From the IMG/VR virus record IMGVR_UViG_3300033064_006579, positions 1 to 64,000 of that record: a stretch of DNA of 64,000 nt; one strand, 5' to 3'. Below the pieces are notes generated by a model. The model was not told where the DNA came from. It searched no databases and saw only the letters and a list, made by a program, of their open reading frames with translations. Positions 33,319 through 37,840 of this stretch are shown piece after piece. The position numbers and the translations under genes are program-made. Source of the stretch: a virus. How positions within the stretch are numbered: the stretch's first letter is position 1; each line of letters starts with the position of its first letter.

Positions 33319-34539
33319 CTACACAACAAGCGCTTGATCTTTGAGATACGATGGTAGGGTTTGGCTATACATAATATCTGAACAAAGCCAACCCGGAGTC
33401 ACTTTTTGAAAATTCCCGTTCACTTGAACCTCGATGGCAGAAAAAACATAATCGACCAATCTTGTAGGTATCTTAAAATCAACACTTCTTATTTGGAGTT
33501 TCTTTTTGTTGATTTCAAAGAAGTCAATCATTTCAATAGACGCCTTCCTAAAACAATTCTCTTCGTAGATTGAAAAGCTACCTTTCGACTTAATACCTCC
33601 AAAGACTCTTCTTACATATTCACTTTTAAACTTATCTGTGATTTTTGGATAGTCATCTTCGAGTAACCCAAGTTTCGATGAAAACTTTGATAAAAAATCC
33701 TTTCCTGGCAAACATTCACTAAACCAACAATTGATTTCAATAGCAACCGAATATTGCCGTATCATTTTTTTTGTATATACTGAAAACCCCTCTAAAAATT
33801 CATACAACGAAACAACATATCCTGGAGATTTTATCACGTTCTCAAACTCTGGGATTTTCAATGTATTATAGTAGTTCTCTATCGACTGGGCTATTTTGGC
33901 TTCAGAAGTTCTTTTTAACTTCTTTTTCAGAGCCTTTAAAGAATTAATACCAATTCTTGATGTTTCTTTATGTACAGTCAGTGGTTTGCCAAAACCATTC
34001 CATAATAAAAACAATCGATATTCTGCACGACTCTCTTTTCTTCTTTTAATTTTGACATGACGTTGAGGCTTTGCCTCATTCTTATTCCTTTTAGGAATAA
34101 TTGTTACATTATTTTCTTCTAATATAGTATTATGTTTAAAGTCAACCTTAGGCCTGTCTAAAGGCGTACCAGGATCCAGGCCTAAGGTTGACTTTAACCC
34201 TGAGATTTCTTGATCTAATTCAATGAGTTTATCTTCGGTACTTTTTCTATGAATTTTTTTGTAATCTGTGACTTTTAAAATTCTTTTTCTACCATCAAAA
34301 AGGACTTGTTTTATAAAATTATTTTTTTTGAGTTTGCTTATTCCAACGCTAATCGTCTGAACCGTCGACTGCATATAGATTGATAAAAAAGTATTTGATG
34401 CGAAGCACCCGTTAGGTCCATCTAACATCTCTATTAAAGCGAATAACTTTTTATCTGCATCTGTTAATTCTTTATGAAAAAGGACTTCGGCTGGTAGAAC
34501 CAAGTATTTAAGCCACAACTTATTTTTCTCATCTTCCAT
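33319..34539 (-). CDS. Replication initiator-like protein (N-terminal winged HTH)
   Basis: LPAEVLFHKELTDADK...CFASNTFLS...ISKL. Lies between primase and helicase and contains a perfect internal inverted repeat. Confidence 0.7.
   Translation of the reverse strand: MEDEKNKLWLKYLVLPAEVLFHKELTDADKKLFALIEMLDGPNGCFASNTFLSIYMQSTVQTISVGISKLKKNNFIKQVLFDGRKRILKVTDYKKIHRKSTEDKLIELDQEISGLKSTLGLDPGTPLDRPKVDFKHNTILEENNVTIIPKRNKNEAKPQRHVKIKRRKESRAEYRLFLLWNGFGKPLTVHKETSRIGINSLKALKKKLKRTSEAKIAQSIENYYNTLKIPEFENVIKSPGYVVSLYEFLEGFSVYTKKMIRQYSVAIEINCWFSECLPGKDFLSKFSSKLGLLEDDYPKITDKFKSEYVRRVFGGIKSKGSFSIYEENCFRKASIEMIDFFEINKKKLQIRSVDFKIPTRLVDYVFSAIEVQVNGNFQKVTPGWLCSDIMYSQTLPSYLKDQALVV
34136..34197. repeat. Perfect 21-bp inverted repeat, candidate replication origin
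   Basis: TTAAAGTCAACCTTAGGCCTG-N20-CAGGCCTAAGGTTGACTTTAA. Confidence 0.75.
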
Positions 34540-35461
34540 CTAAGCCAATCTCCTTCCGAAGATACATCGCCTCGCTCTCTAAGAGGTCTGCAGGATCGCT
34601 ATCGCCACTCAACTCGATCACTTCTACATGCTTAATCTCATTATATAGCGTGAGTTTTTTAGCTAATTGGTGAGCAGATTCAATCGCTCTTGGCTCTGGG
34701 TCATACATAATGAAATAATTTTTAACCCCCTTTTTTAAAAGCTCTAACACTTGGGGCGACGTATAGTTGATGCCAAAAGTAGATACCACTCCACTTCCCA
34801 TTCGCCATACATCAAGAGGGCCTTCGACAATTAAAACTGTATCTCTTTTAATAGAGTCTATGTTGTAAAGTAGGTTTCGATCGAAACCTGGTCGATTTTT
34901 ATAAGATGCGTCGACTTTTCCACTTACGTCTCGAGATGTGAAATCGACAATGATGCCAGATTTAAAGACAGGAATAATAATTCTAAACCTCCACTTGCCA
35001 AGATTAGCACAAGCTTTGATAGAATATTCCTTTATAATGGCATCGGGATGGAAGTTTCTCTGCTCTAAAAAGGAGTAATGAAGCGGAGGGAGTAGATCTA
35101 AGGCTTCGGGAGGTAAAGAAAATGGCGAATCTTCTGCCGAAACGCCAGAAGAATAAGCCTCTCGCCCTCCTCTTATACCTAATATAAGGAATTGAGACAT
35201 CACCGCCTCTGCTGCCGAGTACGAGCATTTTTCTAATCTTGAAATAAGCTTTGCCGACCCTCCTTTTTCTCGACAGATCCAACATTTAAAAACCTTACTC
35301 TCAAGATGAATACCGCAATGGTTATTACCTGAGTAATCGTGGTCGCCGCAGAATGGGCAGGTTATGCCAATCCACCCCCTACTAAGGTTCCTGCCGCCAG
35401 TCCAATACTGAATATTGCGGCTCTCGAAATATGAGATTATGTCGAAGTCTCTGCTGTCCAT
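34529..35461 (-). CDS. DNA primase (Zn-binding + TOPRIM)
   Basis: Motifs CPFC...CWIC, RIIIP, IVEGPLD, YD and DPAD. Confidence 0.9.
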   Translation of the reverse strand: MDSRDFDIISYFESRNIQYWTGGRNLSRGWIGITCPFCGDHDYSGNNHCGIHLESKVFKCWICREKGGSAKLISRLEKCSYSAAEAVMSQFLILGIRGGREAYSSGVSAEDSPFSLPPEALDLLPPLHYSFLEQRNFHPDAIIKEYSIKACANLGKWRFRIIIPVFKSGIIVDFTSRDVSGKVDASYKNRPGFDRNLLYNIDSIKRDTVLIVEGPLDVWRMGSGVVSTFGINYTSPQVLELLKKGVKNYFIMYDPEPRAIESAHQLAKKLTLYNEIKHVEVIELSGDSDPADLLESEAMYLRKEIGLDGR

Positions 35462-35494
35462 AATTTAGGGTACTGGCGGGGAGGGATTTGAACC
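35462..35494 (-). repeat. Degenerate duplicate of the tRNA-like 3' end at 35845-35877
   Basis: AATTTAGGGTACTGGCGGGGAGGGATTTGAACC versus AATTTAGGATGCTGGCGGGGCAGGATTTGAACC. Confidence 0.65.
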
Positions 35495-35506
35495 CGCCCC
35501 TCAATA

Positions 35507-35827
35507 TTAGCGCCAAACCCCCGGCATGGGTAGGGCATGAGGCCAGTCGTCACGCAGATCGGTTGGCCCTTCATTTGGTCCATCGTCAGACAAATCAACG
35601 CTAGGAGGTTCTTTGCCTCGTTGATAGTCAGTTCCCCACCATATATCTCCAGTGAGTTTTTGATTGACGCATTTAATACACTCCCAAAGACTGTTTTTCG
35701 ATGCTCTAAAATAATAGGCAAAGTTGCTACCTGAAGTTACCTCTGGACCAGGATATTTAATTGCACCTAATTTTTCTCGCACCTTTTCAAGCTCATCTAA
35801 AAGATGTTTTATGTCAGCTTCTTCCAT
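35507..35827 (-). CDS. Hypothetical protein between the duplicated tRNA-like ends
   Basis: AGGAGG RBS and ATG start. Confidence 0.5.
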   Translation of the reverse strand: MEEADIKHLLDELEKVREKLGAIKYPGPEVTSGSNFAYYFRASKNSLWECIKCVNQKLTGDIWWGTDYQRGKEPPSVDLSDDGPNEGPTDLRDDWPHALPMPGVWR

Positions 35828-35852
35828 ATTTATCGCCTCCTTTCAATTTAGG

Positions 35853-36082
35853 ATGCTGGCGGGGCAGGATTTGAACCTGCACGGGCTACAATACCATCCC
35901 ATCTTGGCAGCCCGGTTGTTCCCCTCACGCCCTTCTTTGGAAACACCCGAACCTGTGAGGGGCCTGCGTCTACGCGATTGGCAAGCCTAATGAAGACGGT
36001 TCATGAGCGCCGTCTTCCCACCTCTGAGCTACACCCACGTCTTGCCAATCCCCTACTTCAATGTTCCGCCACCCGCCAGCAT
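35853..36082 (-). ncRNA. Expanded tRNA-like RNA (~230 nt)
   Basis: Acceptor TGGCGGG/CCCGCCA, D-stem TG-GCGG-AA...GTAG-ACGC and T-arm GCAGG-TTCAAAT-CCTGC. D-loop, anticodon arm and variable arm are all enlarged. Confidence 0.7.
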
Positions 36083-36084
36083 AA

Positions 36085-36300
36085 TCACTTATTTTTTTCT
36101 AAAATTGCTTTCTCGTGAATATAAGTGTATCTCATCTCAAGCCTCGTCATGCGACTTTCCATTGAGATTACTTCTTCTTTAAGATATTTAATTTCATTAG
36201 AGTTTATTTGTGTTAATAAAAAACCTAAAAAGAGACTAAGTGCAAGAAAGATAATTAGTATGCCCAGAATAAGAGTATCAAATGATTTTTTCATAGCCAC
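36085..36300 (-). CDS. Small membrane-anchored protein
   Basis: One N-terminal hydrophobic helix plus a coiled coil. Confidence 0.55.
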   Translation of the reverse strand: MAMKKSFDTLILGILIIFLALSLFLGFLLTQINSNEIKYLKEEVISMESRMTRLEMRYTYIHEKAILEKNK

Positions 36301-37634
36301 TCCTCGTCAAAATAGAGGCAAAGTCTGTGCCCAAAATGAGAAATTAAATAATAATGGCTCGGATTAAAATAATCTCTTATCGTAACATAAGATTTATCAT
36401 CGGTCGACCTCAACCCCCTGCCTATTGCCTGCAAAGTCATTACCTCACTCTTACCACCGCAGGCGTTTATGACTGTATCAAGGGATGGGATGTTTAGGGC
36501 TTTCCGAAAAACCGCAGTGGCGACGACGCATTTGATACTCTTATCTTCCATGGCGTCTTTGATCTCCATACGAATATCAGCGCCGGTACTTCCTTGCACA
36601 AAAACAAAATCAATATTATAAATACTCTTTGCCATCTCAACTATGTTCTCGCCATGCGCAATCTCTAATACGAGAATTAAAACGGTCTTTCCTCGATCGA
36701 TGTCTACAATAGCGTCAGTAATTACCTTCCTGTTCAGCGCTTTGTTCTCGACCACGCCCGTTTTGTAGACATCTCTATACGTCCTGAGCTTCTTTACGTC
36801 GTGATTCGTCGGGAGTTTAGAGATAATAATCTCCGGCTTCGAAAGCACTCCGTCCTCGACACCCTCTTGGATAGTGTATTCTTCGAGGACGGGGCCAAGA
36901 AGCCCCTCAAGAATTATCCTGTCTTTCTCCGAGTTTGGGAGGGTGGCTGTGAAGCCAAGCCTCATTGGCGCCATGCAATTCGTTAGAACCCTAGCGTACA
37001 TCCCATTGAGGGACGACATCCCCTCGTGGCACTCGTCAATAAGGATAATGTCGAACTCGTCGATGTAGGAATCGGGTTTTTTTCGATAGAATTTCTGGAT
37101 AGTGGTAGAATGGATTTTTTTAGGAAGATCTGCTCTGTGAGCTTTAACTTCTTTTGAGAATTGCGATATAGGCACATGAGTATTGCTTAGGAAAAGAACT
37201 CGCGCCGATGGGTAGCACGATAAAACACCAAGCATCTGAATTGTCTTGCCACTCGCCGTTGCAGACTTGATAACCCCACGTTGATAATTAATGGCAGCAC
37301 CTATCAAATCCCACTGGAAAGCCCACTTGCCCTCTTTGAGGTTTTTACCACTCAGATGCGGTTCTCTTTCTGGGGATAAATGATCTGCGTAGGTCTCGTC
37401 TACAGAATGAGAGATATTCTGGCGATCACAATATTCCCTTACTCTGTTGATGAATCCTGTTAAGAAAATCCCACCCTTTCCGATAAGGGATTTTTTATAT
37501 TCCTTACGGATCTTCCGGTACTGGGATTGACGGTAAAAATAGTCTGAATAGGAGAGGCATGGTTTAAGAAGCTCTCTGCCCTTCAGGATCTTAGAATGAA
37601 CTGGATCTAATATTTCAATTTCTACATCAGTCAT
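36291..37634 (-). CDS. SF2 helicase (UvsW-like)
   Basis: Motifs SATASGKT, DECH, TAT and QAIGRGLR. Confidence 0.88.
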   Translation of the reverse strand: MTDVEIEILDPVHSKILKGRELLKPCLSYSDYFYRQSQYRKIRKEYKKSLIGKGGIFLTGFINRVREYCDRQNISHSVDETYADHLSPEREPHLSGKNLKEGKWAFQWDLIGAAINYQRGVIKSATASGKTIQMLGVLSCYPSARVLFLSNTHVPISQFSKEVKAHRADLPKKIHSTTIQKFYRKKPDSYIDEFDIILIDECHEGMSSLNGMYARVLTNCMAPMRLGFTATLPNSEKDRIILEGLLGPVLEEYTIQEGVEDGVLSKPEIIISKLPTNHDVKKLRTYRDVYKTGVVENKALNRKVITDAIVDIDRGKTVLILVLEIAHGENIVEMAKSIYNIDFVFVQGSTGADIRMEIKDAMEDKSIKCVVATAVFRKALNIPSLDTVINACGGKSEVMTLQAIGRGLRSTDDKSYVTIRDYFNPSHYYLISHFGHRLCLYFDEEWL

Positions 37635-37840
37635 AATAAACACTATAAGTAAGCATTTTAAGGGGAGGACGTTATCACTCTCTTTAAAATGCAATCGATC
37701 TGTAGCCGATTATTCATCTTCCGATTATGTAGTATAATTGGCTTACGTGGACCACCCCACGTGCCAGGCCAAAGAAACAAATCCACTACTGACTTGCTCC
37801 TCCAAAAAACAATCACCTCCTTTCTAAGTGAATTAAAGAA

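Follow-up and report, generated by a model that had tools for sequence, protein, structure and literature searches.

The virus record IMGVR_UViG_3300033064_006579 of IMG/VR is a complete genome of 112,458 bp with direct terminal repeats, and its first 64 kb (64,000 nt), referred to below as the window, were analysed here. The minus-strand genes in the middle of the window form a replication module, within which an RNA gene lies between a helicase and a primase (Table 1). The RNA had been noticed by a reading of the letters alone (hereafter the sequence-only reading), which described a giant tRNA-like RNA with inflated arms at 35853-36082 on the minus strand. The analysis presented here indicates that the RNA is very probably real, derived from a leucine tRNA, and a non-decoding member of a family of phage RNAs. 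Past the primase, the minus strand continues with a replication initiator, a DnaB-like helicase and QueD/QueE-type genes, in that order; both the replication genes (DnaB, DnaG) and the Shine-Dalgarno sites belong to the bacterial type. Next to the gap that holds the RNA, neither a convincing promoter nor a convincing terminator was seen. ORF106, the 106-aa open reading frame (ORF) downstream of the gap, had no match in Pfam or PHROG and no relative in viral contigs or the Atlas. One ordinary tRNA gene, Gly-UCC, was found in the whole genome; a search of the complete genome found no tyrosine integrase, and no CCA-adding enzyme was found in the phage.

Table 1. Features of the RNA and its locus, in coordinates of the window (MFE, minimum free energy; R1, covariance model described in the text).
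Feature	Position	Strand	Basis or remark
RNA body, tRNA-equivalent, U1 to discriminator G73, 223 nt	35856..36078	minus	R1 match, MFE fold
Body plus 4-bp leader-trailer pairing, which extends the acceptor stem to 11 bp	35853..36082	minus	perfect 11-nt inverted repeat
Acceptor stem, 5' strand, pairing with 35857-35863	36072..36078	minus	U1:A72, G2:C71, G3:C70; 7/7 paired
D arm, 3-bp GCG/CGC stem (36067-36069 with 35966-35968), interrupted D loop	35966..36069	minus	class II leucine type
D-loop insert, 85 nt	35974..36058	minus	MFE fold; z -3.1 alone
Arm in anticodon position, 8-bp perfect helix closing 26 nt	35921..35962	minus	MFE fold; no 7-nt anticodon loop
Extended variable arm, 33-nt hairpin, 8+4 bp, then U48	35882..35914	minus	MFE fold
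T arm GCAGG-UUCAAAU-CCUGC, 5 bp, 7-nt loop	35864..35880	minus	Rfam tRNA local match 35864-35881, 14.4 bits
Orphan second copy: T arm, 3' acceptor strand, 11-nt trailer	35462..35497	minus	86% identical to 35845-35880
SF2 DNA helicase (phrog_16)	36291..37694	minus	upstream of RNA, same strand
71-aa ORF	between SF2 helicase and RNA-bearing gap	minus	
RNA-bearing gap, 257 nt	between 71-aa ORF and 106-aa ORF		
ORF106, 106-aa orphan ORF	35507..35827	minus	strong Shine-Dalgarno site; bracketed by the two 36-nt copies
DnaG-type primase	34529..35461	minus	downstream; start directly after orphan T-arm copy

The unconstrained MFE fold of the RNA contains all of the helices in Table 1, at -98.7 kcal/mol. 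Shuffled sequences gave -83.1 +/- 4.5 kcal/mol (z -3.46 for the RNA; 0/200 shuffles as stable), and forcing the acceptor, D and T helices returned an identical fold. Folded alone, the three inserts had z scores of -3.1, -2.5 and -2.2. The tRNA-like RNA that had been proposed is thus present helix by helix, including the class II-type D stem and perfect T arm as well as the long variable arm. The proposed D-loop insert of about 85 nt with two helices was also recovered; it is made up of a 10-bp closing helix (36041-36050 with 35976-35985), a small hairpin and an 8-bp hairpin (35992-36017), and both the 10-bp and the 8-bp helix are perfect. Three details of the sequence-only reading need to be refined. 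It gave the acceptor stem as 11 bp, and an 11-nt perfect inverted repeat does exist (36072-36082 with 35853-35863), but the acceptor proper has 7 bp, and the outer 4 bp are a pairing of leader and trailer that is not kept in relatives, which mostly have 0-2 bp there. The heptamer that it called a loop, CUCAUGA, is present but sits within the 10-nt loop of the 8-bp hairpin in the D insert. Similarly, the arm in anticodon position does have an 8-bp helix closing 26 nt, but these do not form an open loop; they fold as a bulged hairpin with a UGUU cap.

To judge by its nucleotides, the D arm is that of a bacterial class II leucine tRNA. Its 5' side reads U8, G9 and the GCG stem, then GAA, and its 3' side UAGA, CGC and A26, with A15 opposite U48. 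Once positions 25-109 of the RNA (36058-35974) are excised, AUUG meets GUAGA and the D loop becomes a canonical one of leucine type, which places the 85-nt insert between G18 and G19. The likeness to bacterial class II tRNA-Leu (RF00005) extends over U8, G9, the GCG/CGC D stem with G13-A22, A14, the A15-U48 Levitt pair, the UAGA-CGC side of the D arm, the long variable arm and the T loop UUCAAAU. The RNA differs from tRNA-Leu in having no anticodon stem-loop, in the 85 nt that separate G18 from G19 and in its length of 223 nt. Its acceptor end is not leucine-like either: pair 1:72 is U:A, followed by G2:C71 and G3:C70, the discriminator is G73 and not A, and no CCA is encoded. Bacterial tRNA-Asn/Gln genes have exactly this T arm and 3' acceptor strand, and so do orphan tRNA 3' fragments from metagenomes.

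With default settings, ARAGORN called neither a tRNA nor a tmRNA on the RNA, and at lowered thresholds it offered only a forced solution ('Ala, 130-nt intron'). No match was obtained in Rfam 15 at gathering thresholds (29 bits for RF00005), and none to its intron or ribozyme families; at relaxed thresholds RF00005 aligned with the T arm only, at 14.4 bits. A hairpin with a 5-bp stem and a 7-nt loop, as required for an anticodon arm, occurs nowhere in the RNA. When ARAGORN was run on variants carrying two deletions, 420 of 134,640 were called tRNA, none of which used the 8-bp helix in anticodon position. With three deletions, 17,799 variants were called, and since these are scattered over dozens of different anticodons, no unique spliced product is encoded. 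The loop geometry, examined by eye, comprises a 3x4 internal loop, a 3-bp helix and a 3-nt bulge, and is not bulge-helix-bulge. The trimmed top half of the RNA is a good tRNA. Two further claims of the sequence-only reading therefore stand: that the RNA cannot decode and is a non-coding RNA on a tRNA scaffold, which agrees with the lack of ARAGORN and Rfam calls, the lack of a unique deletion product and the absence of an anticodon hairpin from its relatives as well; and that it lacks the hallmarks of tmRNA and of group I introns. The ARAGORN and Rfam checks that it had called for matched no known family.

Relatives were collected by exact gapped-pattern scans seeded from the RNA itself, and the borders and size of the resulting family are lower bounds; likewise, the size range of the relatives, 201-229 nt, was set by the search window. 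A pattern composed of the two D-arm halves and the T loop matched 27 loci. A second one (GGCGGAA, 160-190 nt, T arm) matched 54 loci in IMG/VR, vs. 0 for the reversed pattern. Among the 55 matches in those 54 loci, 34 have 6-7 of 7 acceptor pairs at the exact tRNA offsets, where about 0.7 would be expected by chance. One tandem-tRNA artefact was dropped and 27 unique RNAs were kept, which together with the RNA of the window make 28 aligned RNAs. These have 24 different acceptor stems. Of 196 acceptor cells, 194 are paired; each position shows 2-7 types of pair, among them some G:U on the sense strand. The covariation among homologs that the sequence-only reading had asked for is thus abundant in the acceptor stem. 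AGACGC was found in 20 of the 24 lineages, although the second pattern did not demand it.

The hallmarks of the family are present in the window's RNA, namely U8-G9 and a D arm with GCG-GAA on its 5' and UAGA-CGC on its 3' side, both of which are aligned by R1 (as GGCGGAA and UAGACGC). It also carries the family signature of U48 and a GCAGG-UUCRAAU-CCUGY T arm, a signature to be read with the relatives having been retrieved by a pattern from this very RNA. Among canonical tRNA-Leu genes, a CAGG/CCUG T stem occurs in 2 of 37 from bacterial genome loci and 0 of 6 from viral loci. A plausible anticodon hairpin is absent from all of the aligned RNAs; a strict scan for a 5-bp stem and 7-nt loop flags one each in L210 and L216, which we take as chance. 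The cargo, i.e., the sequence from the D loop to the T arm, measures 160-188 nt in the aligned RNAs and is usually A-rich, and beyond the D-arm sequence no motif in it is conserved across them. A73 is present in 16 of the 28 and missing from 12, and three encode a CCA end. The RNA is therefore not the one-off that the sequence-only reading took it for. It belongs, in divergent form, to a large phage RNA family with hypervariable cargo, and the earlier interpretation is partly supported; the roles that it had offered, as anticodon-nuclease decoy, processing signal or aptamer carrier, are hypothetical. Rfam 15 has no family for these RNAs, and no description of the family was found in the literature searched. 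A catalogue of candidate RNAs from IMG/VR describes other RNAs (PMC10690425), and a 2026 preprint on tRNA mimics likewise covers other RNAs.

Inserts in the D loop are shared with part of the family. The closing helix of the insert, UUGGCAAG/CUUGCCA, which lies at 36041-36050 and 35976-35985 in the window, is common to L182, L219/L225, L222, L226, L227, L228 and L229, with a variant in L043 (about 8 other lineages); a third pattern, made for D-insert RNAs, also recovered two truncated copies. Closest to the window's RNA are L226, L222 and the pair L227 and L228. The insert of L226 starts with a 10-nt motif that is also found in the window's insert. L222 has an identical T arm, G73 and the same trailer, and the acceptors of L227 and L228 are one base off the 8-nt CUGGCGGG of the window's RNA. 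A covariance model, R1, was built from five RNAs of this subgroup with the window's RNA excluded. It matched that RNA over its full length (36078-35856, model 1-169; 38.4 bits, E 2.4e-10), which was the only significant match in the 112-kb genome. Other D-insert members scored 48-64 bits, RNA1 of phage T5 35.1 bits (E 7e-9) and rnaC of phage T4 20 bits.

A modular subfamily, which came to light among the 27 loci of the first pattern, comprises L022, L032, L038, L040, L041, L046 and L047, on IMG/VR contigs of up to 261 kb. Its members agree in the acceptor stem (AGUCAGG) and in the D and T arms, while their cargo of 122-214 nt is unrelated; their D-loop inserts are 0, 32 or about 75 nt long, and the long insert holds a T-arm-like hairpin of its own. 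L046 carries two family copies. In two further cases the parts of the RNA differ in their histories: L206 and L208 have a common acceptor and a common base of the cargo helix and wholly different distal cargo, and L177 and L196 have common cargo and acceptor stems that are different, each complementary. These pairs suggest modular exchange or fast divergence.

Searches beyond the family brought little that resembles the window's RNA. DNA similarity to cultured phages was found for neither the RNA, the surrounding 6-kb region nor three family members. An exact pattern of the 3' end found no homologue of the RNA in viral contigs, and in metagenome contigs it found ordinary tRNA-Asn/Gln genes and orphan tRNA 3' fragments only. 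The nearest relatives of the primase (39% identity; L003 and L004) have no RNA at the equivalent place. Two candidates in these records were rejected: an ARAGORN 'tRNA-Leu' in L004 falls within the helicase ORF, and the sole T-loop motif in the record of L003 falls within a promoter. In a scan of genome contigs, the matches listed were mostly tandem tRNA-Leu pairs, with L053 and L106 as the relevant loci. In L053, from a metagenome-assembled Lewinellaceae genome (JARQTN010000055.1, ~780-1000), G18 and G19 of a truncated 5' copy of tRNA-Leu(CAA) are separated by an insert of about 85 nt, at the same D-loop site as in the window, and an intact tRNA-Leu(CAA) lies directly downstream. Separately, L011 (JAESGO010000010.1, ~11100-11400) has two adjacent tRNA-like genes with inserts of ~50-60 nt in the anticodon region, one of which combines the acceptor stem of the window's RNA with a tRNA-Gln-type D arm. 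Neither is called by ARAGORN at default settings, and they may be intron-bearing tRNAs.

Non-decoding tRNA-like RNAs have been annotated before in cultured phages. The general architecture of the window's RNA is shared by T5 RNA1 (rna1, T5s03; NC_005859 30501-30644), annotated in its record as 'tRNA-like stable RNA with unknown functions'. The fold of T5 RNA1 likewise has an acceptor stem, a 3-bp D stem, a variable-arm hairpin and a T arm, with a leucine-type GAAUUGGUAGA D loop and a 58-nt rod without anticodon in the position of the anticodon arm; it too is not in Rfam and scores similarly with R1 (35.1 vs. 38.4 bits). However, it is 144 nt long, its D loop is uninterrupted, its D and T stems are made of CCG/CGG and GAAGG/CCUUC in place of GCG/CGC and GCAGG/CCUGC, and it is located in the T5 tRNA cluster and not in a replication operon. 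Its stability is stated by the record annotation, whereas the window's RNA is known from sequence alone. Two small stable RNAs of phage T4, species 1 (rnaC) and species 2 (rnaD), are also of unknown function. In rnaC, an acceptor-like stem and a T arm combine with two long hairpins in a tRNA-derived, non-decoding architecture that has no leucine-type D arm; with 20 bits in R1, 139 nt and a place in a tRNA cluster, rnaC is a looser analogue than T5 RNA1.

Other tRNA-like molecules share the general plan. tmRNA (SsrA) combines a tRNA-like domain of acceptor and T arm with a large structured stretch that is inserted after the D region and before the T arm, and its synthetase ignores the anticodon. 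The window's RNA differs from it in having G:C at 3:70 and not the G3:U70 of alanine identity and in its intact D stem, and neither ARAGORN -m nor Rfam identified a tmRNA. YrlA and the Y RNAs are reportedly non-decoding tRNA mimics, some of them phage-encoded, with mimicry of the T and D arms; YrlA is said to end in a long Ro-binding stem with its tRNA-like module internal, in contrast to the window's RNA, whose ends form the acceptor stem. The YrlA family RF02553 had no match in the window, even with E up to 10 around the locus. In the tRNA scaffold engineered by Ponchon and Dardel, cargo RNA is said to replace the anticodon arm, and the tRNA body reportedly secures processing and stability in bacteria. 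That scaffold is a laboratory construct, and we infer no more than that the natural RNA may follow the same working principle.

Relatives of the RNA lie on the same strand as their neighbours in nearly every lineage, 4-100 nt from the flanking ORFs. Among the neighbours tested, 27 of 36 are replication, recombination or nucleotide-metabolism proteins, a raw count taken with no control set. They include clamp loader, SSB, UvsX, Sak4, RecT, exonucleases, phrog_16 helicase, DnaD-like loader, primosomal protein, thymidylate synthase and ParB-methylase. This neighbourhood appears to match the order helicase-RNA-primase at the window's locus. No protein neighbour is conserved across the lineages, and some members, such as that of L041, are found within tRNA clusters. 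In L193, a gene for an RlaP-family 'RNA repair pathway' nucleotidyltransferase (11675-12712, minus; PF10127, E 4e-15) was observed about 1 kb upstream of the family RNA on the same strand.

The downstream flank of the RNA shows signs of rearrangement. A 36-nt direct repeat (35462-35497 and 35845-35880) brackets ORF106, and its distal copy, which the sequence-only reading had missed, is an orphan that retains only the 3' part of the RNA. Compared with the intact T stem, the orphan has one compensatory change (A:U to G:C) and one broken pair. The start codon of the primase follows the orphan copy directly, without a Shine-Dalgarno site. Adjoining the orphan is a 24-nt exact repeat (window 35499-35522 and genome 89263-89286; E 3e-7 within the genome), which comprises the last codons and stop of ORF106 and, at 89.3 kb, lies in the interior of an unrelated ORF in another reading frame. 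We read this repeat as a recombination junction, recent by its look. The two copies of the RNA also share the non-tRNA trailer, and their duplication therefore arose within the phage. A T-arm-like hairpin (5-bp stem, UUCAAUU loop) occurs once more in the genome beyond the window, inside a 92-nt hairpin element with a 14-bp closing stem (90132-90223, minus). This element belongs to a series of hairpins between genes at 89.8-91.1 kb, after each of which come CTAACCATT and then the ribosome-binding site of the next gene; downstream of the window's RNA stands CCTAAATT, which is similar to CTAACCATT.

On the whole, the locus probably holds a gene for a ~223-nt non-decoding RNA that derives from a class II leucine tRNA and joins a scaffold to cargo. 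The parts kept from the tRNA would be the acceptor stem, the 3-bp D stem with its U8/A14/A15-U48 core and the T arm, i.e., the 'top half' with its elbow, to which three folded domains would have been added: the three-way domain of 85 nt within the D loop, a rod that replaces the anticodon arm, and the elongated variable arm. How such an RNA might work can be outlined, in terms that we find plausible though we would stop short of calling them probable. The RNA is presumably transcribed together with the replication operon, given that neither a promoter nor a terminator of its own was seen. Its top half would allow host tRNA-processing enzymes to excise it, with RNase P acting at the 5' end followed by 3' trimming and CCA addition, and would make it long-lived, as are the stable RNAs of T5 and T4. 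As the working parts, the inserted domains would bind or titrate a host or phage factor.

Several observations weigh against this account. No close homologue of the RNA was found, its three inserts are without covariation support, and its cargo cannot be aligned with that of its relatives. Its G discriminator is unique among the 28 aligned RNAs. The D-insert relatives keep UUGG-UAGA 3' of the shared helix, but the window's RNA has lost the UUGG, its G18 and G19 are apart, and it has a D-loop-like stretch 5' of the helix; this copy has thus diverged. With R1, canonical tRNA-Leu genes reach 37-43 bits, level with the window's RNA, and the R1 match consequently shows a leucine-type scaffold and not family membership. 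The locus bears signs of recent rearrangement, and partial decay is possible. Finally, the association with replication genes may only mirror where these phages keep their tRNA genes.

Other explanations can be set against the scaffold with cargo, each of which accounts for part of these data. The conserved part of the RNA, comprising its elbow, D arm and acceptor end, could itself be the functional one, as a tRNA mimic that can be aminoacylated and is read by leucyl-tRNA synthetase (LeuRS), or here perhaps by SerRS given G73 and the long variable arm. Such an RNA, charged or occupying the synthetase, would donate an amino acid, act as a sponge for the synthetase or serve as a tmRNA-like device, and the cargo would do no more than block decoding. 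Its cargo between the D region and the T arm has the topology generally described for tmRNA, but the missing G3:U70 and the missing tmRNA call do not fit such a device. In E. coli, LeuRS needs A73, A15-U48 and G18G19/A20a, and not the anticodon or the variable arm, and a truncated tRNA-Leu without anticodon and variable arms is still charged (PMC9976931). The parts needed by LeuRS are those that the family conserves, and the A73 of 16 members and the CCA ends of three point the same way. However, A73 is absent from the other 12 and is G73 in the window's copy, which acts as an antideterminant for LeuRS in E. coli tRNA-Ser (PMC9976931); several lineages also lack G18G19, a pair that is split by the insert here. 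For the family, charging or binding to a synthetase has to be taken seriously as a rival; for the window's RNA we consider the mimic unlikely. Ranked behind it, and also unlikely, is a cis-acting element of the replication-operon mRNA that provides punctuation or stability, the excised RNA being functionless. By recruiting RNase P/Z it would separate the helicase and primase messages, or it would block exonucleases. The same-strand operon, its tight spacing and the lack of a promoter or terminator, here and in most relatives, are in keeping with such a role, as is the position of the orphan 3' copy directly before a primase start that has no Shine-Dalgarno site. Yet a plain tRNA or hairpin would suffice for it, which leaves 130-170 nt of structured, lineage-specific cargo unexplained; nor does it account for an elbow sequence of D and T arms conserved across 24 lineages or for members that lie within tRNA clusters (L041).

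It is quite unlikely that the RNA is a decaying family member or a recombination scar no longer under selection. The 36-nt partial duplicate beside an orphan ORF, with a 24-nt exact repeat of the interior of a distant gene adjoining it, would suit this explanation, as would a D loop more disrupted than in the relatives, the atypical discriminator and an R1 score of 38 bits vs. 48-64 for other D-insert members. Against it, the helices of the intact copy are all perfect (11, 10, 8, 8, 8 and 5 bp) while the orphan copy has a broken T-stem pair, which is the pattern expected from selection on the full copy alone; moreover, the fold is the MFE fold with z -3.5, and a 257-nt gap has been kept in a tightly packed genome. 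A decoding tRNA interrupted by several introns, archaeal (bulge-helix-bulge) or self-splicing, is very improbable. Removal of the 85 nt does restore a perfect D loop and ARAGORN accepts many three-deletion variants, but the deletion scans gave no unique product and the two-deletion calls never used the 8-bp helix; this hypothesis was rejected after those scans. In addition, the geometry is not bulge-helix-bulge, Rfam reported neither a group I intron nor a ribozyme, a group I intron would need longer inserts, and the replication genes and Shine-Dalgarno sites are bacterial in type. The least probable explanation is that the locus acts as DNA, serving as an origin of replication, a single-strand initiation site or an attachment site in which the 3' end of a host tRNA is copied. 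The placement between helicase and primase, next to the initiator gene, and the identity of the T arm and 3' acceptor strand to bacterial tRNA-Asn/Gln genes would agree with it. In contrast, conserved tRNA tertiary nucleotides and strand-specific G:U pairs in the acceptor and T stems indicate folding of sense-strand RNA, and the trailer shared by both copies indicates duplication within the phage. The complete genome has no tyrosine integrase, and the attachment-site role was set aside on that ground.

Non-decoding look-alikes of tRNA have been known in phages since the stable RNAs of T4 and T5 were found, and their function was never explained. The family described here covers dozens of lineages in uncultured phages, with a near-invariant elbow and D arm, and was missed by standard tRNA finders. 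It allows the old question to be approached: what reads the elbow, whether the RNAs are excised or charged, and what the cargo binds. With its scaffold joined to cargo, the RNA would be a natural counterpart to the engineered tRNA scaffold used for RNA expression in bacteria. A wider and more doubtful proposal is that phages possess a widespread natural 'tRNA-scaffold' expression platform, in which the leucine top half, nearly unchanged in sequence among very different phages, would serve as a handle for processing and stability, perhaps also for LeuRS or another reader of the elbow, and hypervariable effector modules would be exchanged. Such modules might be swapped between lineages in an arms race with the host, e.g., as decoys for defences that target tRNA or sense RNA. 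If this proposal is true, T5 RNA1 would be the first known member of the platform, and the copy in the window would be one that carries modules in three loops of the scaffold.

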